This document shows, in pieces, positions 31,985 to 45,966 of a stretch of 50,833 nucleotides of DNA. The notes below the pieces were generated by a model. It ran no database searches. It was not told the DNA's origin and was given only the letters and a program-made list of their open reading frames with translations. The DNA is from Clostridiales bacterium (GTDB taxonomy: Bacteria > Bacillota > Clostridia > Oscillospirales > CAG-272): the NCBI GenBank assembly GCA_016282315.1, contig JAEEKG010000014.1, positions 1 through 50,833 on the forward strand. The letters run 5' to 3'. Made by a program: the position numbers and the translations under genes. Position 1 is the first letter of the stretch; each line of letters begins with the position of its first letter.

Positions 31985-32161
31985 TTAGTATAGTATTATT
32001 ATACCATTTTCTTGCATGAATGAGTAGATGGTAAAAACAACAATTGCTTACGATACTTAAAGTTGAGAAAAAAACATATTTATCATTGTAAATCACAAAA
32101 ATAATAACTATAATAGTATGCGTTGATTATTCAACATTACTTTCTATTACAAGAGGGGAAT

Positions 32162-33766
32162 ATGAAAACATTTACAAAAATTTTAGCTCTGTTAATTGTT
32201 GGTATTATGATGGTGCTTGCTATTGCATCATGTAATGGAAATACTCAGCAAACAACTACAGAAAAAGATCAAACAGAACAAACTACAGAAGCTGTGACAA
32301 AAGCAACAGAAACAGCTGATGTAACAACAGAAGTAACTACAGAAGAAACCACAACTGAAGAAGTTACCACTCCGGAAGAAACAAAACAACAAGCCGTTCA
32401 AGAATTTGACATGAGCGATGTTGTCCTTACATTCGGATTGGTTTCTGATGTTCATATAGGTGATGAAAATAGAAATGCATCAAATAAGCTCAGAAGTGCG
32501 CTTATGCAGCTTCAAAACAAAGCTGATGAACTTGGAGTAACCCTTGATGCAATTGCTTCAACAGGTGATATTTCAAATAACGGAACTGTTGAGCAATACA
32601 CAAAGTTCAAGGATATATATGAGAGTGTTATGGGAACAGATGTTCCATTTGTATTTACACTCGGTAATCATGATGCTTATACTCCGCTCAGCACAGCATT
32701 CAACGTATTCACAACAGATACATACAGAAAATCCATGGTCGATTCATCATTAATGCAATTAGGTGATATCCATTATGTTGTAAACGGAGTACACTTCATT
32801 TCTGTTTGTGCATCAACATACTCAAGTTCAAATTTTAGCTGCGCATTCAGCTCGAAAACAAAGAACTGGCTTGATGAAACTCTTGAACAAATTACAACAG
32901 AAGATCCAAATGCTCCTGTATTTGTTCTTTTACACTGCATGATTTATGACACTGCTTACGGCAGCAATTTGGAAGTATATACAAGTTGTTGTTGGTATAC
33001 AAAGGAACTGACAGAAATTCTCAGTCAGTATCCTCAAGTTATCACACTCAGCGGACACCTTCACTTTACAGTTAATGATGAAAGAAGCATCATGCAAAAC
33101 ACTTTCACATCAATTGGATGCGGCTCTACATGTTACATGGCAGTTATGAATGGTGGATATCAAGGCATGTCAAGTGTTACAGTAATGGCAGATGCAAATG
33201 ATATCTCAAACGGATTGCTGTTTATGGTAGATTCAAAGGGTAATGTAAAAGTTGTAAGAATGGACTTTTCAAACAAATCTGAAACAAAAGAGCCTTGGGT
33301 TATACCAGCTCCTGTTGAAGACAAATCACATTTGAGCTTCTACACAGCAGACAGAAAAGAAAATGATAATGTTGCTCCTGTTTTCGGAAGCGGTGAGTTA
33401 ATTTACTTTGATGATATCATGACAAACAGCAAAGGTTACCTTCCTAAGATCTTCTGGAAAGCAGCAACTGATAATGATATGGTTTTCCTATATGAAGTAA
33501 CCATAAAAGATTCCACGGGCAAGCAACTTGAAAAGTGGAAATTCTTGTCAGATTATTACAGAGTAATTGATGCAAAAGATATGAAAAAAGAGTATTCAGT
33601 TCAGAATAGAATTGCTGGCGGAAGACTTAATTTCAACGAAGAGTATACAATTACAATTGTTGCTTATGACTGTTGGGAAAATGCAAGTGAACCTGTTTCA
33701 ATTACATTTACTGGCAATACAGATGGAGAGATTACAGTTGTTTCAGCAACTTTTGCTGACAAATAA
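32162..33766 (+). CDS. Lipoprotein, calcineurin-like metallophosphoesterase
   Basis: Lipobox LAIAS-C, Thr/Glu linker, then SDVHIG, TGDI, LGNHD, LLH and SGHLH motifs, with a beta-rich C-terminal domain. Confidence 0.85.
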   Translation: MKTFTKILALLIVGIMMVLAIASCNGNTQQTTTEKDQTEQTTEAVTKATETADVTTEVTTEETTTEEVTTPEETKQQAVQEFDMSDVVLTFGLVSDVHIGDENRNASNKLRSALMQLQNKADELGVTLDAIASTGDISNNGTVEQYTKFKDIYESVMGTDVPFVFTLGNHDAYTPLSTAFNVFTTDTYRKSMVDSSLMQLGDIHYVVNGVHFISVCASTYSSSNFSCAFSSKTKNWLDETLEQITTEDPNAPVFVLLHCMIYDTAYGSNLEVYTSCCWYTKELTEILSQYPQVITLSGHLHFTVNDERSIMQNTFTSIGCGSTCYMAVMNGGYQGMSSVTVMADANDISNGLLFMVDSKGNVKVVRMDFSNKSETKEPWVIPAPVEDKSHLSFYTADRKENDNVAPVFGSGELIYFDDIMTNSKGYLPKIFWKAATDNDMVFLYEVTIKDSTGKQLEKWKFLSDYYRVIDAKDMKKEYSVQNRIAGGRLNFNEEYTITIVAYDCWENASEPVSITFTGNTDGEITVVSATFADK

Positions 33767-33783
33767 TAATAGTAAAAAAGATT

Positions 33784-33809
33784 TGCCGAGTTCATCGCTG
33801 AACTCGGCA
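33784..33809. terminator. Bidirectional terminator
   Basis: TGCCGAGTTCA-tcgc-TGAACTCGGCA between convergent genes. Confidence 0.8.
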
Positions 33810-33818
33810 TTTTCAATA

Positions 33819-35729
33819 TTATTTTGCATTATGGCGTAACCTTGCACTGTTTATTAATACAACAAACGCACCTACGTTATGAAGTATTGCTGCAATCAGA
33901 GCACTGATTAAACCAAAAGCTGATAAACTAATCATTACAAAACTGACAACTATTGATACAACCAAATTCTGATAAATAATGCGTCTAGTACGTTTAGACA
34001 AATCAATTACAAAAGGAATATTGTCTATATTGTTATTCATGAGAGCTATATCTGATGATTCGACTGCTACATCAGAACCCATAGCACCCATAGCTATTCC
34101 GACATTTGATTCTTTGAGTGCCGGAGCATCATTAATGCCGTCGCCAACGGATAAAACGCAATTATCTTTTTTGAGGGATCTTATTATGGACAATTTGTCT
34201 TCAGGCAATAATTCAGAATGCACTTTGTCAATTCCTGCTTGTTTTCCTATTGTTTCAGCATTTGATTGTCTATCACCTGTCAAGAGATAAATATTGTCGA
34301 TTCCAAGCTGTCGTAATTGTTCTATGCTTTTCTGTGAATCATCTCTCAATTTGTCTTCAAACAACAATTTTCCAATGCATTCGTTATCTAAAGCTATGTA
34401 GCTTACAGAAACATTTTCATCATCGATATTATCATCAAAAACTATACCATTTGCCGACATTAGACGCTTATTGCCAAACAAACAAGTCTTGTTATCTTGT
34501 AAAAGTGCTTCTATGCCTTTTCCCGGTATTTCTTTAGTTGATGAAACGGACATACAATCCTGAAAACCATCTTTGCAATAATTGACAACTGCTCTTGACA
34601 CAGGGTGAGAAGAAGAGTTTGCAATTGAATAAGCAATTTTAATTAATTCTTCTTCAGTGTGTCCCGGACACGGGATAACATCTTTTACTGACAAATCGCC
34701 TTCTGTAATTGTTCCGGTTTTATCAAAAACAACTGTGTCAACTATTGACAATTCCTCAATGAATTTTGAGTTTTTTATCAATATTCCTCGTTTGGTTGCC
34801 ACAGATAGTGAAGCAATCATAGGAGCAGAACTTACAAGCATGTGGCCGCATGGACAGGAAGCTACAAGAACTGTGATAAATACATTTATATCTCTTGAGA
34901 AAAAACCTGATATTGCTGCAACTGAGAGTACAAAGGGAATGTAGTACCTCAGAAACTTATTCATTATTCCCGTTTCTTCTGAAGTGATGCTTTCTGATTT
35001 TTCCAGCATTGCCAGAATCTTACTGAATGAAGTGTCATTGTACTCCTTTGTCACTTCAACAGTTATTGTTCCATCTAAATTAATTGTGCTTGCGTACACA
35101 TTGCTTGAAGGGCTTGCGTGATAAGGTTTTGATTCACCTGTCAAAGATTTTTGATCGATGTCGCACTCGCCGCTTATTACAACGCCGTCAATCGGAATAA
35201 TCGCACCGGGTCGTACAATAATGTGTTGACCAGGCTTCAGACTTTTTGCTTCAACTATTGTTTCCTTGCCGCTGTCATCAATCATGGTGGCGGTACTTTG
35301 TTGCATCTTTTTCAATCCATCAATTATTTCTCGGCCGCCTATAATACTTCTTTCCTCCAATATATGCGCTATATTGAGAATCAGAGGTATGATACAAGCC
35401 AATAAAAGATTTCCGTTAAAGTAACAAGCAATAATTGCTATTGAAACCAATAATTCCATTTCTCCCGAGGCATTTTTCTTGAAAAGCCCCTTGATTCCTG
35501 TGAATAGAATGGGTATGCCTTCAACTAAAAATGCGATGGTGTACAAAATATGCGGAACAACGGGTTTGTCTTTTATTGCAAAGGTGTATATCAGTGCTAT
35601 ACAAATGCAGAAAACAGCAATTATTCCTGATACTAAATCAATTCGGAGCCTTTTTTTGGAGGCTTCAGACAAATTGTTTATCGCAAGATTGTCTATCTTG
35701 TTTTTAAAAGTATCATCTATATTTTTCAA
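33819..35729 (-). CDS. Heavy-metal-type (P1B) P-type ATPase lacking an N-terminal metal-binding domain
   Basis: LTGES, SCPC, DKTGT, SHP, LTGD, GDGINDAP and last-TM LHNVG. TTG start follows GGAG. Confidence 0.92.
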   Translation of the reverse strand: MKNIDDTFKNKIDNLAINNLSEASKKRLRIDLVSGIIAVFCICIALIYTFAIKDKPVVPHILYTIAFLVEGIPILFTGIKGLFKKNASGEMELLVSIAIIACYFNGNLLLACIIPLILNIAHILEERSIIGGREIIDGLKKMQQSTATMIDDSGKETIVEAKSLKPGQHIIVRPGAIIPIDGVVISGECDIDQKSLTGESKPYHASPSSNVYASTINLDGTITVEVTKEYNDTSFSKILAMLEKSESITSEETGIMNKFLRYYIPFVLSVAAISGFFSRDINVFITVLVASCPCGHMLVSSAPMIASLSVATKRGILIKNSKFIEELSIVDTVVFDKTGTITEGDLSVKDVIPCPGHTEEELIKIAYSIANSSSHPVSRAVVNYCKDGFQDCMSVSSTKEIPGKGIEALLQDNKTCLFGNKRLMSANGIVFDDNIDDENVSVSYIALDNECIGKLLFEDKLRDDSQKSIEQLRQLGIDNIYLLTGDRQSNAETIGKQAGIDKVHSELLPEDKLSIIRSLKKDNCVLSVGDGINDAPALKESNVGIAMGAMGSDVAVESSDIALMNNNIDNIPFVIDLSKRTRRIIYQNLVVSIVVSFVMISLSAFGLISALIAAILHNVGAFVVLINSARLRHNAK

Positions 35730-35731
35730 AT

Positions 35732-36682
35732 CTATTTCTCCGTATTAATGACTATTTTGCTCTCTCCATCATTTACTATTCTTACTTTTCCCATTTGAGA
35801 CATAATCTTTGTTATCTTATCATTGAACAATCTCAAGGTAACTACATCCTTGTTGTCTTCATACTCATCTAAAACACCATAGAATTCAGCCAGTTCTTCT
35901 TTCGCTGAAGCCAAAGAATTAGAATAAGAAATCTTAGCCCTTGACAACAAACTATCGTAAATAGAGTTGGCGTATGCTGTCATTTTTGATTCATACAATT
36001 CGGCATCTTCAACTATAGTTTTAGCTTGAACAGAAGCAGAATTAACATTGTCATAAGTTTCTTTGACTTCCATGGGCATAGACACTTTAGTTAATTCAAT
36101 TGTTGATATTGTTATGCCGCAACAAGCATTGTCCAATTTGTCCTGAGATATCTTGATAATACTTTTTGTAAATTGTTCCTGTTCGCTTGTCAGCAAAGAA
36201 TCTACAGACATGTTTGCCGATACATCCACCATGGCTGATCCAACGAAAGCATTTACCAATTCATCTATTTTTTTAACGTTAATCGTATAATCAACAGGGT
36301 TAGACACAGTATATTTCACAGATGCTGAAATCAATGCAATGTTTTGATCACCAGTTATAACATAACCTTTACCGCTTAACGTGCTGGTCTCGCTTTCCGT
36401 GTAATGCATTGTTACTGACTGTTCCATAACGGTATCCATGGGAACTATTACAACTTCGTCAATTAAAAACGGAAGTGCAACCAATAATCCAGGACCATGA
36501 ACTTTTTCATCAAAAGTATTGCCAACAATTTTTCCAAATCTCAAGATCAATGCAACATTTCCGCTTTGAACAATTTTAAATCCGCTGAATGATATAAGGA
36601 TAATTACAAGAACTATCAGCGCCACAAAGTATTTTGAGAGTTTGGAAAGAATGTCTGACAACAAATTCTTTTTGTTTTTCAT
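35732..36682 (-). CDS. HflK-like SPFH domain protein
   Basis: TM anchor, LRFGK, GPGL..LPF.ID, ITGDQN and an Ala-rich helical C-terminus. Confidence 0.85.
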   Translation of the reverse strand: MKNKKNLLSDILSKLSKYFVALIVLVIILISFSGFKIVQSGNVALILRFGKIVGNTFDEKVHGPGLLVALPFLIDEVVIVPMDTVMEQSVTMHYTESETSTLSGKGYVITGDQNIALISASVKYTVSNPVDYTINVKKIDELVNAFVGSAMVDVSANMSVDSLLTSEQEQFTKSIIKISQDKLDNACCGITISTIELTKVSMPMEVKETYDNVNSASVQAKTIVEDAELYESKMTAYANSIYDSLLSRAKISYSNSLASAKEELAEFYGVLDEYEDNKDVVTLRLFNDKITKIMSQMGKVRIVNDGESKIVINTEK

Positions 36683-36694
36683 ATAATATCTCCG

Positions 36695-37759
36695 TTAATC
36701 ATCAGACATTGAATTCTTGATTAATTCGTAAATTGCATTGGTTAATGCTGTTCTATCTTCTTCATTCAATTGAGTGAGAATGTAAGACAAATCTTTGATT
36801 ATTGTTTGATCATTTTCTGTGGTTATGTAATCAGAATACTTGCTCAAAATGTTGAAGGGGTATTCGTCAGCTTTAACCACAAGAATTGTATTTTCTCCCA
36901 CTGAAGTTGCAATTGTGTCAAGTTCTTTCAGGAATTTGAACAATTCAAGATTAGAGCTTTGAGCAGCAGCGTAGATTGATGCAACTTCGCTTTCAGCTTT
37001 TGCATATATTTCAGCCGCTTCAGTTGTTCCTTTTCCGATGATTTCAGCAGCCTTTGCATCAGCTTGAGTTGTTATTCTGTTTGCTTCAGTCTGTGCATTG
37101 GCCAGAATGGTGTCAATTTCTTTTTGTCTTTCTGCTGTCATCTGAGCAAATACACTTTCAAGGTTTGCATTAGGAAGAGACAGTCTTAAAAAGCTTACAT
37201 CCTGAATATTGATGCCATAATTGTTTTTGCATGCCTCAGCAACTCTCTTGAATATCTCATCTTGTATTTCGTTGATTTTTATTTCTTCATTGTTTAGTGA
37301 AACGAGAGAATTGAGATTGTAAGAACCCATTATGCTGTTTGTTGCGCTGAAAACTTGATTCTTAATAAAGGAATTTGCAGACCCCTGTGTTCCAACGCTA
37401 TTGTGGTACAACTTGATATCATCTATGTTCCAAATAACATATGACTGAATGATGATGTTTCTCTTGTCCTGAGTAATTGTTTCGAGGTTGTCTGACTCCA
37501 GATATTGAAGTCTTCCGTCGTATTTGGTAACTGTTTCAAAAGGCCAAGGCAATTTCAGATAAATGCCGGCATCGGTTATTTCCTGTCTTATTGCTCCAAA
37601 ACGAAGAACAACAGCTTTTTCTCCCTCTTTAACCTGACAAGTGAATCCAAAATAGAATAGTGCCAATACGACAACAACTGCAAGAAAAATCTTCAATATC
37701 AAGAAAGAAATGGACTTTTTGTTTTTGACATTGTTTTCATTTGTATTTGTATTATCCAT
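36695..37759 (-). CDS. HflC-like SPFH domain protein
   Basis: AVVLRFG, KLPWPFE, YDGR, ITQDKRN, NYGI, VFAQMTAER, AEIYA and LFKFLKEL resemble HflC. Confidence 0.87.
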   Translation of the reverse strand: MDNTNTNENNVKNKKSISFLILKIFLAVVVVLALFYFGFTCQVKEGEKAVVLRFGAIRQEITDAGIYLKLPWPFETVTKYDGRLQYLESDNLETITQDKRNIIIQSYVIWNIDDIKLYHNSVGTQGSANSFIKNQVFSATNSIMGSYNLNSLVSLNNEEIKINEIQDEIFKRVAEACKNNYGINIQDVSFLRLSLPNANLESVFAQMTAERQKEIDTILANAQTEANRITTQADAKAAEIIGKGTTEAAEIYAKAESEVASIYAAAQSSNLELFKFLKELDTIATSVGENTILVVKADEYPFNILSKYSDYITTENDQTIIKDLSYILTQLNEEDRTALTNAIYELIKNSMSDD

Positions 37760-37768
37760 GATTCACCT

Positions 37769-39436
37769 CTACTTATCTGACCAGATTGTTCCAAAGTATA
37801 TATTGGACTCATCTATGCCATTTCCGATAATAACCAGTGTTGATTGACCGTATGCTGTCTTTAAAGCATTCAAATACTTGTAGTATCTGTAAGCTGTGGA
37901 ATTGTCCATGTCTGCTTCTACAGAAGCCATAAAGACCGCGACATCTGCTTTTGCTTTTGCGATTTTGTCATATTGATCTGAAAGCGCCAGATTTACAGAT
38001 GCATCATACCTTCTGTTAGCATCCGCCAGAGTGACTTCAGCCAAGCCATGAGCTTCATGCAGGTATTTGGTTGCTGTTATTTCCGCACCAACAAGATTCT
38101 GAAATACTTCAGCTATCTCAAATGGCGGATGAATGCTTTCAAGAACCACACTGACTATTTCTATTCCTGTGTTGTAAGATTCTATGCCTGAACAGAGAGT
38201 TGTTGCAAAGTCTTCGGAAAAAGCCACGCGGTCAGTTGCAAGCAAGGAATCTATGTCGGTGTTTATTATTTTTTCTGTAATTGTGTTATATGCTGTTGCC
38301 TGAACAATTTCTTCAGGAGATGAGGATGAGAGGGCAAATGATTTTACATCATTGATTCTGTAACTAATTTTTAAGTTGAGAGAAACAAGCTCATTACCTC
38401 CACCCAACAACAATTTGTACTCATCTACCCCAGTTCTTACAGTCCATAAATTATCTGTATCACCGCTTGAGATATATCCAATAGTCATTTCCTGAACAAC
38501 ATCAGTATCATAAATTTCGACTTTGTCAAAAGGCCATGGGAGGGTGTAGTGCAGACCGGGATTTAATTCGGCTTTGTAAGCACCGCACCTATATAGGATT
38601 CCTTTTTGATAAGAATTTATAGTGGTAAAACCTGTACACAGCCAAAATACAACAACCACTGCAATTAATGCATAAGGAAGAATATTTTTTACAAAAGCTA
38701 TGCTCCACAATGATCTGACAGTCAGTCCTGTATTCTTTTCAAGATATGAAATTAACCCTAAGTCCTTTGATTTGCCTATTGCAACAGGCTTGGGTATACT
38801 CAGATCTGGTTTAGAAAACAGTTCTTTTTTCAGCGCTGCAAGAGCCAGTGATACTAGCATCATCAAGATTTCGTATGCGAAAATAATTGAGAGTATTACT
38901 TTAAGAACTACGTTGAAATTGTAAACATTGACCACAAGCAAAATGTTCTCAATTATAACAAATAGAGTCGCAAATCTAATCAGTGCCAGCGATGAACGCA
39001 GATTGTTCAATACGCTGTTGTAATATTCATCATCACTCAAGTTATATTGGCACCATTGCTCAATAACTATCAAAGCTATGACTATCAGCATTAGAATGAA
39101 TGGAAAAACGACTGATACAGATTTGTCATCAACTTTGCTTATGTTAAGAATGTAAAACAATACGGTTGATGCTATTACGAGTATTGTTAAAATGGTGACA
39201 AAAGGATTGACAGCCTTTTTTACAAACGATTTAAAATCTTTATCTGATTGTTCATTATCCGGTTTGTTTTCACCCTTGAGTGCCAATAAGAGGTTAGATA
39301 TTGCAGGTGCAAAGGCTATGAAAAAGCATAGATAATATGCTTTGAATTCACTAAACAGTGCCAAAGCAACAAAAGAGAAAGATATTAAAACAAGAAAAAT
39401 TGAAGATAAAAGAGCAGTTCTTTTCTCTTTGTTCAT
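37769..39436 (-). CDS. HflK-like SPFH protein with a multi-TM N-terminal domain
   Basis: About 6 TM helices precede the anchor, then PGLHYTLPWPFDKV, GIEIVSV.LESIHPP and an Ala-rich coil. ATG at 39436 follows AGGAGG. Confidence 0.85.
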   Translation of the reverse strand: MNKEKRTALLSSIFLVLISFSFVALALFSEFKAYYLCFFIAFAPAISNLLLALKGENKPDNEQSDKDFKSFVKKAVNPFVTILTILVIASTVLFYILNISKVDDKSVSVVFPFILMLIVIALIVIEQWCQYNLSDDEYYNSVLNNLRSSLALIRFATLFVIIENILLVVNVYNFNVVLKVILSIIFAYEILMMLVSLALAALKKELFSKPDLSIPKPVAIGKSKDLGLISYLEKNTGLTVRSLWSIAFVKNILPYALIAVVVVFWLCTGFTTINSYQKGILYRCGAYKAELNPGLHYTLPWPFDKVEIYDTDVVQEMTIGYISSGDTDNLWTVRTGVDEYKLLLGGGNELVSLNLKISYRINDVKSFALSSSSPEEIVQATAYNTITEKIINTDIDSLLATDRVAFSEDFATTLCSGIESYNTGIEIVSVVLESIHPPFEIAEVFQNLVGAEITATKYLHEAHGLAEVTLADANRRYDASVNLALSDQYDKIAKAKADVAVFMASVEADMDNSTAYRYYKYLNALKTAYGQSTLVIIGNGIDESNIYFGTIWSDK

Positions 39437-39465
39437 CCCACGCCCTCCTAATTTTTGATAAATCA

Positions 39466-39495
39466 ATTATATATTTTATTATAAGAAAAAGTCAA
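39466..39495 (-). promoter_or_regulatory. Putative sigma-A promoter of the SPFH-ATPase operon
   Basis: TTGACT-N18-TATAAT on the minus strand. Confidence 0.55.
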
Positions 39496-39505
39496 TCAAC
39501 ACGCG

Positions 39506-39535
39506 AAAAAAACAGGTCTTTTCAGACCTGCTTTT
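39506..39535 (-). terminator. Terminator after the NYN gene
   Basis: CAGGTCT-tttc-AGACCTG flanked by A7 on the plus strand. Confidence 0.7.
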
Positions 39536-39540
39536 CAAGG

Positions 39541-40287
39541 CTATTTTTTTAAACCATCTTCAACGATTTTTTTCCATCTAGCTTTGACAACTTGAACGCT
39601 CTTCTTTTTTGACAATTTGATATTTTCTTCATATAAGTATCCGTCTTTTATCATTTGTTCAAGTTCGTAACTAACACCTTTTTGACTGACTTTTCCGTAA
39701 TATGCTGATTTTTGAATGATTACGCTCTTCAAGGCATCCTCGGTGTAGTTTTTATGGACTTCGACATGATCAAGCCAGGTAATAATCGGTCCGCAGAACT
39801 CATTCTGTAATTCCTTAGCAGTAGGGATTTCAATACATTTTGTCGCACTTAGTTTCAGCATGCTGCTTGTGCAATTTATGACACCATATATACATACTTT
39901 CTTGTGGCACTTATTAATGATAAATCTAACAACTGAACTGAAGTGTCCATCGCCTGTAAAAATTATGTATGTGTCTATTTTTTTGTCCGATATTGTTTTC
40001 TGATAAATATAATCCAACATTATAAAATCAGTAAAGTCTTTTTTGATTCTCTCGCTAGGATTCTGAGTGTCAAATACAGATGCTGAAATGTTTCTTATTT
40101 TATCCAGCTCTGCACGAAGGGAAGGATTTGTGAAATCCGCAAAAAAAGCTATCTCTTTAACATCATATTGCTCGTGGATTTCGTCTGCCCATTTTTTAAT
40201 GTCGGGCTTTATTCCGAACTGATTATCACATGAAATGAACCAATGCTCAAAATCAACAACTGCAATAGCAGTCGGTTTTTTTCGCAT
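39541..40287 (-). CDS. NYN (LabA/DUF88, PIN-like) domain protein
   Basis: VVDFEH, KDFTDFIMLD, FTGDGHF and a possible C-terminal winged-helix-like region. Confidence 0.8.
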   Translation of the reverse strand: MRKKPTAIAVVDFEHWFISCDNQFGIKPDIKKWADEIHEQYDVKEIAFFADFTNPSLRAELDKIRNISASVFDTQNPSERIKKDFTDFIMLDYIYQKTISDKKIDTYIIFTGDGHFSSVVRFIINKCHKKVCIYGVINCTSSMLKLSATKCIEIPTAKELQNEFCGPIITWLDHVEVHKNYTEDALKSVIIQKSAYYGKVSQKGVSYELEQMIKDGYLYEENIKLSKKKSVQVVKARWKKIVEDGLKK

Positions 40288-40459
40288 AGTCCTAAGCAAC
40301 CTCCTTCTTTTAGAATTGTCTTTTACGACAAGACAATTTTAACACACGGAATGAAGTGTTGCAATGATTCGTTATATTTTTTTCCCTCTTTAATTGAAAG
40401 TACTACTAATTTATGATATCATGTCTATAATATTTATGGGTATCAGATGAGGTTGTACC

Positions 40460-40867
40460 ATGATCGCAATAATATGTCTGGATGACAAAAACGGTTATTT
40501 ATTCAACAAAAGAAGACAGAGCAAAGATTCTGTTTTGAGAGAAAGAATCCTCTCTCTTGCCTGCGAGTCAAAGTTGTGGATGAATGCATATACTCAAAAA
40601 CAATTTGAAGAACAGACAGGCTCATTTATCGAAGTGAGTGAAGACTTTGCCGATTCTGCTCAAAACGGAGAGTATTGTTTTTTTGAAAATGTTTCTCCGA
40701 CTGATTATGAGAATAAAATCGAAAAAGTCATCATTTTCAAATGGAACAAAGTATACCCGTCTGATGTTAAATTCAATATGGATCTTAGTGATTTTAAATT
40801 GGTCTCACAGGAAGATTTCAAGGGTTCTTCCCATGACAAGATAACGATGGAGGTTTATGTAAAATGA
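40460..40867 (+). CDS. Conserved hypothetical protein, possibly DHFR-like fold
   Basis: 135 aa with a GAGG SD; overlaps the next gene. IICLDDKNG..FN and YPSDVKF are reminiscent of DHFR termini. Confidence 0.7.
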   Translation: MIAIICLDDKNGYLFNKRRQSKDSVLRERILSLACESKLWMNAYTQKQFEEQTGSFIEVSEDFADSAQNGEYCFFENVSPTDYENKIEKVIIFKWNKVYPSDVKFNMDLSDFKLVSQEDFKGSSHDKITMEVYVK

Positions 40868-41700
40868 AAAAGAATTTCAAAGTTATTCTGTTAGCTGTTG
40901 TTATGGCTTTGTCTATAGTTGTGCTCACTGCATGCAACATAGACTTCAATAATCTTAAAGGCGAAATTGAAGGTTTTATCAGTGACATTTTCACTGATGA
41001 AAAAACCACAACAAGCACCCCTTCCAATGTTAATGTAGAGGGCAATTTTAAAGCTTCGGATATTCCTGCTTTTACAGGTGAAGCGTATGTGAGCATAAAT
41101 GGTTCAATACCGTTTTTTACAGATGATGAGAAAAACACAAAGGTGTTTGAAACATATTCACCTTTAGATAGTTTGGGCAGGTGCGGAGTTGCATATGCAA
41201 ACATATGCAAAGAATTAATGCCCACAGAAGAAAGAGGAGCAATAGGAAGTGTAAAGCCTTCCGGATGGAGTCAGGTAAAATACAGCTTCGTAGATGGACA
41301 ATATCTGTACAACAGATGTCATTTGATAGGATTCCAACTTGCTGGTGAAAATGCAAACCCACTAAACCTCATTACAGGAACCAGATATCTGAACATTGAA
41401 GGAATGTTACCTTTTGAAAACTTGGTTGATGACTATGTCGATGAGACAAAGAATCACGTTTTATACAGGGTTACTCCGATTTATGAAGGAAATGATCTTG
41501 TATGCAGAGGAGTATTGATGGAAGGCTTCTCAGTTGAAGATGACGGCGAAGGAGTATGCTTCTGCGTATTTGCTTACAACGTTCAGCCTGGAGTTAAAAT
41601 CAATTACGCAGACGGATCAAGTACACTAGATGGAACAAAAACCGAAATAACGGAAATAAGTTTTCTGTTTTTTGAAGTTACAAAAGAGTATATATATTGA
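40864..41700 (+). CDS. Lipoprotein DNA/RNA non-specific endonuclease (EndA-like, His-Me finger)
   Basis: Lipobox LTA-C, LDSLGRCG, YNRCHLIG, NLITGTRYLN..GM..FE, YRVTP, NVQPG. Confidence 0.9.
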   Translation: MKKNFKVILLAVVMALSIVVLTACNIDFNNLKGEIEGFISDIFTDEKTTTSTPSNVNVEGNFKASDIPAFTGEAYVSINGSIPFFTDDEKNTKVFETYSPLDSLGRCGVAYANICKELMPTEERGAIGSVKPSGWSQVKYSFVDGQYLYNRCHLIGFQLAGENANPLNLITGTRYLNIEGMLPFENLVDDYVDETKNHVLYRVTPIYEGNDLVCRGVLMEGFSVEDDGEGVCFCVFAYNVQPGVKINYADGSSTLDGTKTEITEISFLFFEVTKEYIY

Positions 41701-42831: not shown

Positions 42832-45800
42832 ATGGACAATGTTTCAGAAGTTCAGAATAACGAACAAACAGAAGTGACAACTGAGCAGAGTGAAGTTGTG
42901 ACAGAAAAGAAAGAAAAGAAGAAAAGTTTGTGGAAGCGATTTTGCGAATGGGAATATTCGTACTTGATTCTGTGCTTTTTCCTTCCATTTTTAATTCTTT
43001 TTGCTGCTTATGCAGGACTTGGCACACATCCATTCGGTAACAATTCTGTTCTGACTTTGGATTTGCAGGGTCAATACATTTATTATTTCGAGGCTGTCAG
43101 GGACAACTTGCTCAAAGGCGGAAGTTGGCTTTATTCATGGCAGAGAACTCTCGGTGGCGAGTTCATGGGTATCGTCGACTACTACATGGGTAGTTTCTTT
43201 AACCTTGTTATAGTATTATTCCCAAAGAAGCTTATTGCAGATGCAGTAATGTTTATAGAATTGCTCAAGGTCGGTTCGATGGGCGTTACATTCGGTTATT
43301 ATCTGCATAAAACAAGAAGACCGGGATCATATAAAACAATAGCTTTCTCAATGATGTACGCTTTGTGCGCATATTCAATTGTCAACCTGATGAACCCCAT
43401 GTGGCTTGACGCTGTATTGCTTCTCCCTTTGGTAATCCTCGGTGTTGAAAGATTGATAAGATATAAAAAAGTCGGTCTGTACATAGGCTCACTCGCACTC
43501 GTATTCATAACAAACTACTATATAGGCTACATGGTAGGTATTTTTACATTCCTCTACTACGTTTATTACAGCTTTATAATTGATCCGGAATTGAGCGCAG
43601 GCAGAAAACGCAAAGAGAAATTCCTTGAAAACACACATGTTAAAAACTTTATAAGATTTGCTATAAGCACGGTAATTGCTCTTTTAATAGGTGCATTTTG
43701 GCTTTACTCAGCATACTATTCACTACAGTTTGGTAAGATAGGATTTTCAAATCCGACATTTGATTTCAGCCTGAAGTTTGATTTGATGGACTTCTTTATT
43801 AAAATGCTTCCTGGCAGTTATGACACAGTACATCCAAATGGTCTTCCGATGGTCTACAGTGGTATTCTTGCTCTTGTATGTCTACCGTTGTTCTTTATAT
43901 CCAAGAAGGTATCCAGAAGACATAAAGTCGCAGCAGGCGGCATGCTTGTAGTACTGTTCTTCAGTATGCTCGTTAATTCATTCGATTTGGTTTGGCATGG
44001 TTTCTCAGCTCCAAACTGGTTGAATGCAAGATATTCATTTGTTTTCTCATTCTTTGTAATTGTTATGGCTGTTGATGCATTCAACGGTTTAAAGGATATA
44101 AAGATTGGAACAGTTGCAGGTGTTACCGGAGCTTTGGTTCTAGCGGTAATGCTGATACAAAAACTCGACATCGTCTGGGATCAGGGTGATGACAAATTAC
44201 CTCTTGATGATGCGGGATGTATTCTTCTCTCGGTTGTTTTGCTGATTGTATACATACTCGTAATCGACTTTATGAGAAGAGACAAGACAAAGTCGACTGC
44301 AGGATTCATTTTAGTGGTTATAGTTGCTGCAGAAATGTTTGCTTCTTCAATTATCACAATCGGTTTTATACATGAAGACGTTGGTGTGACAAGATATAAC
44401 AACTATTTGTCTTCATCAGGAAAAACAGAATATTATTCATCATATAATGGCAGTATCCAGAGAATAGAAGGAGTTGTTAATTCAGTACTTGAATCCGACA
44501 AATCCCTGTACAGAATGGAAAGCACTGTATACAGAAGAGCCGGAGGTAACAATGAGCCGATGGCATTTGGCTTTAACGGTATCTCTCACTCTACATCAAC
44601 ATTGAATAAACCAATCATCACAATGATGGCTAAACTTGGTTATTCATCCACATCGCACTGGACAAAATACATAGGAGGAACTCCGGTATCCGATGCTTTG
44701 CTCGGAATCAAATATGTCATCACAAAGAATGACACGTTAGATAAGAACATATACACTGTTGCCGCTAAAGGCAAAGAGTCATCTCAGTTACTTGTTACAG
44801 ACAATACTATTTATGCAATGAAAAACAACAAAGCGTTGTCATTTGCATACGGCGTCAGCGATAATTTCATAGATGACCTTACAGAGTCAATCTATCCCCC
44901 ATACATAACAGCTTTGGAATATCAGAACAAATTGATTAACTCCATGCTATCCGAAACAGATTATTCTTCAGGAGATATATTTGTAGGAATAACTGCAGCC
45001 ATAGATACAGTTGACTGCTCAATGAGTACATTTACTCAAAAACACAAATACGTATATAACGGTGAAGAGAAAACTGCTTCAAACATGTATTACAGTTTCT
45101 CATCACCGCAAAACGAAGATGCAAAAGTGGTATTTGATTTCACATCACCTATTACAGGTAAGATTTATTATCACTTCCCATCTGCAAACTTCGGCATGCA
45201 AGCTGATGTATATGTAAATGGAAAGTATTTGGTTGAGTATTTTACAAACGAGAGTACATGTGTATTGGAACTCGGAAGTTTTGTAGAGGGTGAAGCTGTA
45301 TCAGTTGAACTCAAGTTTAAAAAGACAAATATATATATTTCCAAAGCATCAAAACATTACTTCTATTACATTGATTACAAAGCATTGAATGATGCATTCT
45401 CATATTTGGAATCAAACGAACTCTATGTTGAGAGTTTCGGAAATGACTTCATAAAAGGTAATATCAACCTGACTGAAGGACAAGATCTGATTTTCACAAC
45501 AATTCCATATGACAAAGGCTGGAATGCTTATGTTGATGGAGTAAAAGTTGATACCGTTCAAGTTATGGATTGTATGTTGGCTGTTCCATCTACACCCGGT
45601 TATCACACAGTTGAATTGAGATATATGCCGACAGGATATCTCATCACAATGATTGTTTCTATTGTAGCTATAATAGGCTTCTTGGTATTCCTTGTCTTAT
45701 CTTTGAATAAGAAGGCCAGAAAGTGGTTCATGACGAAGGTTATGAAGAAGGAATATACTGAACAAGAAAAAGTGTTTGAAGACCTTTCACCTATTGGTGA

Positions 45801-45966
45801 GTATGAAAAAGAGTTCGGAGAATCAAAATATAAAAGCATTTTGTTCCCGGATGAAACAGACGAACAACCAAAACAAGAACAAAAAGACGAAAAAGAAAAT
45901 GAAGTAGTAACTGAAGAAGAAACTTCAGAAGAAGCTTCAGAAGAAAACAAAGAAAACAAAGAGTAA
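42832..45966 (+). CDS. YfhO-family (GT-C fold) membrane protein
   Basis: LDLQGQY, YYMGS.FN, WLDAVLLLP, NYYIGYM, WHGF..PN..ARYSF, TIPYDKGW.AYVDG, about 13 TM helices. Confidence 0.9.
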   Translation: MDNVSEVQNNEQTEVTTEQSEVVTEKKEKKKSLWKRFCEWEYSYLILCFFLPFLILFAAYAGLGTHPFGNNSVLTLDLQGQYIYYFEAVRDNLLKGGSWLYSWQRTLGGEFMGIVDYYMGSFFNLVIVLFPKKLIADAVMFIELLKVGSMGVTFGYYLHKTRRPGSYKTIAFSMMYALCAYSIVNLMNPMWLDAVLLLPLVILGVERLIRYKKVGLYIGSLALVFITNYYIGYMVGIFTFLYYVYYSFIIDPELSAGRKRKEKFLENTHVKNFIRFAISTVIALLIGAFWLYSAYYSLQFGKIGFSNPTFDFSLKFDLMDFFIKMLPGSYDTVHPNGLPMVYSGILALVCLPLFFISKKVSRRHKVAAGGMLVVLFFSMLVNSFDLVWHGFSAPNWLNARYSFVFSFFVIVMAVDAFNGLKDIKIGTVAGVTGALVLAVMLIQKLDIVWDQGDDKLPLDDAGCILLSVVLLIVYILVIDFMRRDKTKSTAGFILVVIVAAEMFASSIITIGFIHEDVGVTRYNNYLSSSGKTEYYSSYNGSIQRIEGVVNSVLESDKSLYRMESTVYRRAGGNNEPMAFGFNGISHSTSTLNKPIITMMAKLGYSSTSHWTKYIGGTPVSDALLGIKYVITKNDTLDKNIYTVAAKGKESSQLLVTDNTIYAMKNNKALSFAYGVSDNFIDDLTESIYPPYITALEYQNKLINSMLSETDYSSGDIFVGITAAIDTVDCSMSTFTQKHKYVYNGEEKTASNMYYSFSSPQNEDAKVVFDFTSPITGKIYYHFPSANFGMQADVYVNGKYLVEYFTNESTCVLELGSFVEGEAVSVELKFKKTNIYISKASKHYFYYIDYKALNDAFSYLESNELYVESFGNDFIKGNINLTEGQDLIFTTIPYDKGWNAYVDGVKVDTVQVMDCMLAVPSTPGYHTVELRYMPTGYLITMIVSIVAIIGFLVFLVLSLNKKARKWFMTKVMKKEYTEQEKVFEDLSPIGEYEKEFGESKYKSILFPDETDEQPKQEQKDEKENEVVTEEETSEEASEENKENKE

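Follow-up and report, generated by a model that had tools for sequence, protein, structure and literature searches.

What is the partner of an HflK/HflC-type trio of SPFH proteins that is encoded beside a metal-pumping ATPase and away from ftsH? The question is raised by a four-gene unit on the minus strand of a 50,833-nucleotide contig from a Clostridiales bacterium (JAEEKG010000014.1, assembly GCA_016282315.1), the whole of which is called the window here. The unit encodes three SPFH proteins, named S1, S2 and S3 in gene order, and a P1B-type ATPase. We found that trio and pump are inherited as one cassette, that S1 carries an additional membrane domain predicted to have the fold of a cation diffusion facilitator (CDF) transporter, and that a separate cassette of three SPFH genes has a true CDF exporter fused to its first SPFH protein. 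We favor the possibility, to which we give somewhat more credence than doubt, that S1, S2 and S3 form a dedicated HflK/HflC-type assembly in which the pump is housed or scaffolded and S1 serves as adaptor.

A unit of four genes and its link to the pump

A first-pass annotation of this DNA had described four genes spaced 9, 12 and 2 bp apart with a promoter and a terminator of their own, an extra domain of about six transmembrane helices in the first SPFH protein, and a neighbourhood free of ftsH, hflX and nfeD, and all of this agrees with what we see. The four minus-strand open reading frames (the first originally called at 37769-39466, the others as in Table 1) are separated by gaps of 9, 12 and 2 bases, the unit lies between promoter-like and terminator-like elements, and S1 consists of six helices, then a linker, then a seventh helix ahead of its SPFH part. 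The Pfam Band_7/SPFH model (PF01145) matches all three proteins, with E values of 1e-14 for S1 (residues 282-473, numbered in a 565-aa frame), 6e-29 for S2 and 4e-18 for S3. The earlier description of the trio as HflK-HflC-HflK-like holds in part: hflK, hflC and hflK are the best NCBIfam models for S1, S2 and S3, but none of the three reaches the equivalog cut-off (TIGR01933/TIGR01932; S1 104.2 bits against 159.4, S2 133.2 against 134.4 and S3 131.4 against 159.4).

The 1.9 Mb genome holds one FtsH, on contig C18, with HflX on C17 and NfeD on C104; the window is C35. As far as genomic linkage goes, the operon on its separate contig is unconnected with FtsH or hflX. Five Band_7 matches were found in the genome, three of them in the operon, and they include no canonical hflK-hflC pair outside it. 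The other two belong to an NfeD-linked stomatin-type gene (C104:9472-10276) and to a single 360-aa SPFH protein (C51:9837-10358).

The neighbour that the trio does keep is the pump. When one genome per prokaryotic species was scanned with an S1 alignment, 80 loci were recovered, all from uncultured gut Clostridia, and tblastn placed S1, S2, S3 and the ATPase in the same order and on the same strand in 72 of them; the remaining eight are cut short by the end of a contig, within S1, S2 or S3 or right behind one of them, and none contradicts the order. Spacing is tight and order invariant across every locus seen. Among 401 sampled genomes of the window's order, its own genome counted, eight hold an S1 orthologue (E below 1e-100) and exactly those eight hold an orthologue of the ATPase, adjacent and on the same contig, with 52-55% identity and over 680 bits; the next best ATPase match in the 401 genomes has 351 bits and 34-36% identity. 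One genome of the window's own genus is without both S1 and the cassette ATPase. A profile search added a divergent S1 clade, represented by one genome of another family in a 401-genome phylum sample; the divergent copy (L102) keeps the gene order at identities of 33% for S1, 46% for S2, 31% for S3 and 42% for the ATPase. Furthermore, the distance matrices of the four proteins across 64 loci correlate with r of 0.76-0.87, which none of 999 permutations reached, and to which shared species history contributes. Conservation of the neighbourhood and congruence of the SPFH and ATPase phylogenies were among the checks that the first-pass annotation had proposed, and both came out on its side; its central claim, a trio dedicated to a P1B ATPase with no genomic tie to FtsH, is borne out by the order in the 80 loci, by the strict co-distribution in the 401 genomes and by the plasmid copies described below.

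An alternative is that the trio, as a specialised form of HflK/HflC, brings in the housekeeping FtsH and so controls turnover of the pump, the pump being a substrate of proteolysis and not a housed client. In its favor, a review of effluxosomes describes protection from degradation for other metal transporters of bacteria (PMC13460109). It also suits this alternative that the best NCBIfam models are hflK and hflC, that the C-terminal half of S1, the one protein of the trio that was folded, finds its best structural matches in HflK/C chains of FtsH complexes (7vhq_E, E 1.4e-13, and 9cz2), and that the genome offers a single FtsH and no other HflK/HflC pair. We nevertheless regard it as unlikely. 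Our reasoning for this is that: (i) all three proteins score below the equivalog cut-offs, and FtsH and HflX are encoded on other contigs; (ii) the trio occurs in only 8 of the 401 genomes, always with the pump, whereas FtsH is, to our knowledge, near-universal in bacteria and (iii) a CDF exporter fused to an HflK-like protein, as in the second cassette below, is more in line with a scaffold for transporters than with an adaptor for a protease.

Spread of the cassette

The cassette is also found outside the Clostridia. A tblastn search of plasmids with S2 pointed to two conjugative plasmids, pMSMB2035 of Burkholderia ubonensis and pYD-K10_1 of Klebsiella aerogenes, and both carry genes annotated as 'HflK', 'HflC', SPFH protein and 'cation-translocating P-type ATPase' in the order of the window. 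The 'HflK' proteins are 631 aa (Burkholderia) and 568 aa (Klebsiella) long, S2 is 29-30% and the pump 33-34% identical to its counterpart in the window, and the pump motifs are ACPCAL (helix M4) and LHNVGT or LHNMST (helix M6). In quick maximum-likelihood trees (support given as SH-aLRT throughout) the cassette pumps form one group (83), sister to a stand-alone P1B family with FCPCAL in M4 and HNAGS in M6 and apart from the CadA-like pumps, which are a separate group (100). S1, S2 and S3 of the cassettes each group across phyla as well (94, 95 and 96), and the triplication is therefore older than the spread of the cassette. The stand-alone family is common in the window's order (ten genomes, L106-L115).

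Both plasmid cassettes are flanked by IS110, IS66 or Tn3 transposases, and the data point to a four-gene cassette that behaves as a mobile unit and has spread as mobile cargo. This bears on a second alternative, namely a functional link without a complex: the task of the trio would be to remodel or protect membranes under metal stress, or to buffer surface metal, the pump would work alone, and the genes would be co-selected on mobile DNA. Such a scenario would sit well with the flanking transposases, with the patchy distribution of the cassette, including the same-genus genome that lacks it, and with the only mild phenotypes of a Pseudomonas aeruginosa paFlo5-7 triple mutant (about 20% less biofilm and attenuated Galleria virulence; PMC13086221). 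Set against it are the invariant order and tight spacing in every locus seen, a linker motif in S1 that was found only in pump-linked cassettes and the fusion of a transporter domain to an SPFH protein, which argues for physical coupling. On these grounds we hold a link without a complex to be improbable.

The extra domain of S1

The predicted CDF fold of the S1 domain, which was not in the first-pass annotation, ties the scaffold itself to metal transport. Residues 1-204 of S1 were folded alone (pLDDT 85.7, pTM 0.80). In a Foldseek search with this model CDF exporters came first but weakly (YiiP, E 0.65, probability 0.97), and a structure search independent of Foldseek placed ZnT3 first (Z 14.3). 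On re-alignment YiiP (8f6k_B) reached Z 16.9 with an rmsd of 3.5 and 189 residues aligned across the whole membrane domain; rows 1-19 were all CDF chains, the next fold having a Z of 7.3, and the six-helix fold was closest to inward-facing CDF states.

The domain shows no such likeness at the level of sequence. Pfam Cation_efflux (PF01545) has no match in S1 at E up to 10, the HxxxD/DxxxD metal site of helices 2 and 5 is absent, and no His, Asp or Glu is conserved in the helices of 43 sequences. When the S1 profile was compared with that of the CDF-fused proteins of the second cassette, hhalign aligned the SPFH part only, and an HMM of the S1 domain gave no match to those proteins; to two proteobacterial S1 proteins it gave E values of 0.004-0.03, marginal in a database of five sequences. 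A profile search with the domain in 1.84 billion representatives returned 161 matches, of which 12 that were long or divergent were scanned with Pfam (10 SPFH fusions, one protein that matched no family and two matches that were spurious, with no CDF match among them). In a protein atlas search with residues 1-250 the best score was 0.77, below any useful level.

We conclude that the six-helix domain is probably a degenerate CDF-like domain that does not transport. That it is instead a novel and active transporter, working in series with the ATPase and providing, for example, a path for protons or counter-ions or for the return of the metal, would be in keeping with its full CDF membrane-domain fold, nearest inward-facing states, and with the intact CDF site of the CDF-fused cassette, but seems very unlikely for a domain with no conserved Asp, Glu or His in its helices and no Pfam CDF match, which is the fastest-evolving of all the parts (mean distances of 0.56 in S1 and 0.35 in the ATPase) and leaves most of the invariant residues to the linker.

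The linker is where S1 is most conserved (Table 1). E233, T236, G237, R241, L243 and S245 are invariant in the 43 sequences, and a related motif, GI.LRQSW, is found in the Burkholderia plasmid copy and is absent from the CDF-fused proteins. Applied by eye, the positive-inside rule would put the N-terminus of S1 and the linker in the cytoplasm and the SPFH part outside, as in HflK/C. In S2 and S3 no metal-binding motif is conserved, the CC of the window's S3 not being kept in relatives.

A second cassette with a fused exporter

SPFH proteins of 510-545 aa were met in three genomes of the order-level search, and two of the loci were read (Table 1). In this cassette a Pfam Cation_efflux domain (E 1e-25) is fused to SPFH, two further SPFH genes follow and an ATPase is lacking. 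At least 274 proteins belong to the family, which is named 'FtsH protease activity modulator HflK' by NCBI in cultured Firmicutes; its hosts include Sedimentibacter, Pygmaiobacter, Oliverpabstia and Desulfosporosinus. The likeness to the window's cassette lies in the three SPFH genes and in the layout of the first product, which has six helices, a linker, a seventh helix and SPFH. Unlike S1, the fused proteins contain a true Pfam Cation_efflux domain with an intact site (an invariant HxxxD in both helix 2 and helix 5) and a His-rich linker, and, unlike the window's trio, they have no adjoining ATPase. Pairwise BLAST hinted that the three genes correspond by position to S1, S2 and S3, of which the tree confirms the second gene only, the second genes of all cassette types being one clade (SH-aLRT 95). 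Whether or not the fusions are independent, HflK-like proteins have become linked to metal exporters on more than one occasion.

The two loci that were read share 82% DNA identity over 8.2 kb (L088:7660-15848 and L089:5322-13516) and come from genomes of two different families. The shared stretch comprises the CDF-SPFH cassette together with DUF1385, PpiC rotamase and M23 peptidase genes, and a serine recombinase and a small sigma-70 region-4 protein are encoded beside both cassettes.

Motifs of the pump

The ATPase has Pfam E1-E2_ATPase and HAD hydrolase domains and passes both the P1B model TIGR01525 (517.2 against 346.25 bits) and the cut-off of TIGR01512 (445 against 313.5); Pfam found no N-terminal metal-binding (HMA) domain. 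The catalytic motifs TGES, DKTGT, GDGINDA and S.HP are intact in the window and conserved in sets of 69 and 38 orthologues. Helix M4 carries SCPCG.ML.SSAPM and helix M6 LHN.GAF, and within these S291-C-P-C294 and H617-N618 are invariant in the 38 orthologues, the divergent copy included.

The nearest solved relatives are the P1B-4 pump sCoaT (7qbz) and ZntA (4umv), with the HN of the window's pump aligned to HE in sCoaT and AD in ZntA. The ligands of P1B-2 pumps, besides CPC, are a Lys in helix M5 and an Asp in helix M6, and the HN in M6 departs from this pattern. The hallmark of P1B-6-like pumps of the CtpC type is N-X18-H-N-X-(S/T) between M5 and M6 (PMC13460109); the window has HNVGA and no Asn 19 residues upstream, and the proteobacterial cassette pumps read HNVGT and HNMST at this site. 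Our guess is that the pump would move a soft or borderline divalent metal, zinc first and copper second, zinc being placed first because the CPC and HN motifs parallel those of CtpC and because of the HmtA literature.

Comparison with described systems

Of the described cases, the Pseudomonas aeruginosa hmtA locus (PA2439-PA2435) comes closest in its published gene order, which runs HflK-family, HflC, HflC-family, P-type ATPase; the likeness is one of gene order in the literature and of the two proteobacterial plasmid cassettes, which are homologous gene by gene to the window's, and not of a direct comparison with PAO1 sequences. The PAO1 locus has an extra small gene, PA2436, and the window operon no recognised Zur box; in M4 the proteobacterial pumps have ACPCAL and the Clostridia clade SCPCG. 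In a mutant of znuA, PA2435 (HmtA), PA2437 and PA2438 (HflC family) and PA2439 (HflK family) are up 5.6- to 14.4-fold (PMC4542158), proteins of the locus become more abundant when zinc is depleted (PMC11761036), and the promoter of PA2439 is bound by Zur, the genes being co-induced in zinc limitation (PMC4542158, PMC11761036, PMC8531726). The three SPFH proteins of the locus, PaFlo5-7, are ascribed to a single, horizontally acquired operon in a paper in which the word ATPase does not occur (PMC13086221). The papers cited here report co-induction of the SPFH genes and hmtA and do not treat their products as a complex.

Escherichia coli HflK/HflC bound to FtsH (7vhq, 7wi3, 9cz2) resembles the trio in its SPFH domains, N-terminal anchor helices and long coiled coils and in having K-like and C-like paralogues encoded side by side. 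The trio differs in that it has three paralogues, scores below the equivalog cut-offs and lacks linkage to hflX or ftsH; in addition S1 has its CDF-like domain and the invariable neighbour is a metal pump.

Precedent for membrane scaffolds encoded with P1B ATPases comes from mycobacteria, where PacL proteins are needed for the stability and clustering of their Ctp pumps, one of which, CtpC, combines CPC with an HN motif as the window's pump does (PMC13460109). PacL proteins are unlike the trio in that they are small and contain DUF1490, and the words SPFH and flotillin do not occur in that review; moreover, PacL binds the N-terminal metal-binding domain of its pump, a domain that the window's pump lacks (PMC13460109). 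That an SPFH cage can enclose channels and transporters is known from human stomatin, whose cage encloses AQP1 and UT-B (PMC12407830; PDB 9zd2). Stomatin is a eukaryotic homo-oligomer on the cytoplasmic face, with clients that are not genetically linked to it, and in these respects is unlike the trio.

The first-pass annotation had mentioned similar annotated clusters and no functional study, which fits our literature search: it found no paper that treats SPFH proteins and a P1B or CDF transporter as a complex. Likewise, we found no mention of an SPFH-transporter pairing in the first 300,000 characters of a Chem Rev review (PMC11672702).

A proposed dedicated assembly for the pump

In the scenario that we favor, S1, S2 and S3 would build a single hetero-oligomer of the HflK/HflC type, a ring or dome at the outer face of the cytoplasmic membrane, and its dedicated client would be the co-encoded P1B ATPase, not FtsH. 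The part of adaptor would fall to S1, whose degenerate CDF-like domain and near-invariant linker would hold the pump in an enclosed membrane patch, and the pump would be stabilised, clustered or gated by the assembly. We infer the assembly itself, its contact with the pump, the metal that is moved and the direction in which it moves. The overall interpretation in the first-pass annotation has fared accordingly: the dedication of the trio to the ATPase stands, and the cage, the enclosed pump and the closed compartment stay what they were, proposals based on homology with HflK/C.

Several points weigh against this scenario. Contact between the SPFH proteins and the pump is a proposal; a complex prediction with the pump and S1 residues 1-272 scored 0.00 in two runs without controls and weighs neither way. 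The metal and the direction of transport are likewise putative, and linkage on mobile DNA can reflect joint selection in the absence of a physical complex. Support for a single cross-phylum clade of cassette ATPases is only moderate (SH-aLRT 83). What suggests homology of the S1 six-helix domain to CDF proteins is its predicted fold alone, and the tree places the CDF-fused protein with the third gene of its cassette (SH-aLRT 88), not with S1; the two fusions to six helices may thus have arisen independently. Finally, hmtA mRNA was not repressed by zinc (PMC8531726), and the importer role of HmtA comes from overexpression phenotypes for which a review wants confirmation (PMC10393844).

Should the favored scenario hold, the cassette would give bacterial SPFH cages a concrete, testable transporter partner besides FtsH: an HflK/HflC-type trio is hard-wired to a metal transporter, through operon linkage in one form and through direct CDF fusion in the other, and the cassette spreads on mobile DNA from gut Clostridia to Proteobacteria. 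It also names a candidate adaptor, the CDF-like domain of S1 with its invariant linker, and offers the zinc-regulated hmtA locus in P. aeruginosa as a tractable model. The odd 'importer' behaviour of HmtA, which was studied without its three scaffold partners, may find an explanation here.

A bolder version of the dedicated assembly, which we think quite improbable, is that the SPFH dome is a closed extracytoplasmic chamber, in effect a private 'periplasm' for a single-membrane bacterium. The exporter (the P1B pump here, the fused CDF domain in the other cassette) would fill it with zinc or copper, to be loaded onto exported proteins or else released or recaptured in a controlled way, and the two cysteine-rich LRR lipoproteins encoded upstream of S1 in some related loci (see below) would be candidate cargo. 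If this were true, SPFH cages would be reaction vessels for metal handling and not only scaffolds.

Borders and neighbourhood of the operon

Features of the operon are collected in Table 1. The start of S1 was corrected from the TTG at 39466 to the ATG at 39436, since the -10 box ends on that TTG; the resulting length of 555 aa is that of database entry P0005.

Table 1. Coordinates of the operon, its signals, the parts of S1 and the CDF-fused loci
Feature	Position	Strand	Description
S1	37769..39436	-	555 aa: six-helix CDF-like domain, conserved cytoplasmic linker, seventh helix, HflK-like SPFH and coiled coil
S2	36695..37759	-	354 aa, HflC-like SPFH protein, one N-terminal helix
S3	35732..36682	-	316 aa, HflK-like SPFH protein, one N-terminal helix
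P1B-type ATPase	33819..35729	-	636 aa, TTG start, eight predicted helices
Promoter-like site	39466..39495	-	TTGACT (39495-39490), 18-base spacer, TATAAT (39471-39466); 11/12 consensus positions; consensus match only
Ribosome-binding site AGGAGG	39444..39449	-	7 bases 5' of the S1 ATG
Terminator-like hairpin and T-run	39506..39530 (about)	-	ends the upstream NYN-domain gene; upstream border of the unit
Bidirectional terminator-like hairpin	33784..33809	.	11 pairs; common to the convergent metallophosphoesterase gene
S1 residues 1-204	38825..39436	-	six-helix bundle, predicted fold of the CDF transporter membrane domain
S1 residues 205-250	38687..38824	-	most conserved stretch of S1, consensus YLEKNTGITMRSLWS, predicted cytoplasmic
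S1 residues 251-555	37772..38686	-	membrane anchor helix and SPFH/coiled-coil/C-terminal part
CDF-fused cassette loci	L088:7644-11231; L089:5312-8904	-	

No riboswitch was seen, an Rfam scan of 33000-41000 giving no match, and no regulator gene adjoins the operon. A palindrome 3' of the -10 box (TTGAT-TT-ATCAA) was considered as a regulator site and dropped: by eye it does not fit the Fur/Zur box pattern, which is 7-1-7, and the closest relative has a different upstream region. Short contigs assembled from RNA libraries (99-100% identity; three RNA-labelled runs and one run guessed to be RNA) touch all four genes, and one of 223 bases (X19) bridges the junction of S1 and S2 (37718-37940). They are a weak hint of transcription, of which such contigs cannot be proof, DNA carry-over being possible.

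Directly upstream of S1, on the same strand, 26 of 71 related loci encode a pair of paralogous, cysteine-rich LRR_5 proteins of the BspA type whose signal peptides are lipoprotein-like (for example L069:5657-8000 and L009:1309-3756, both on the plus strand). Apart from this pair no cluster of flanking genes occurs in more than 9 of the 71 loci. The window lacks the pair at its operon and the genome has 35 LRR_5 matches elsewhere.

The genes around the operon in the window are unrelated to metals: an NYN-domain protein (39541-40299, minus strand), a 547-aa calcineurin-like phosphoesterase (32123-33766, plus strand) and, further along the plus strand, a DNA/RNA non-specific endonuclease (40864-41700) and a 1044-aa YfhO membrane protein (42832-45966). 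DNA nearly identical to window positions 33750-39560 is present in bovine, goat and sheep gut metagenome runs, 15 of which hold 28-65% of the sampled words, and the host organism appears to be a resident of the ruminant gut.

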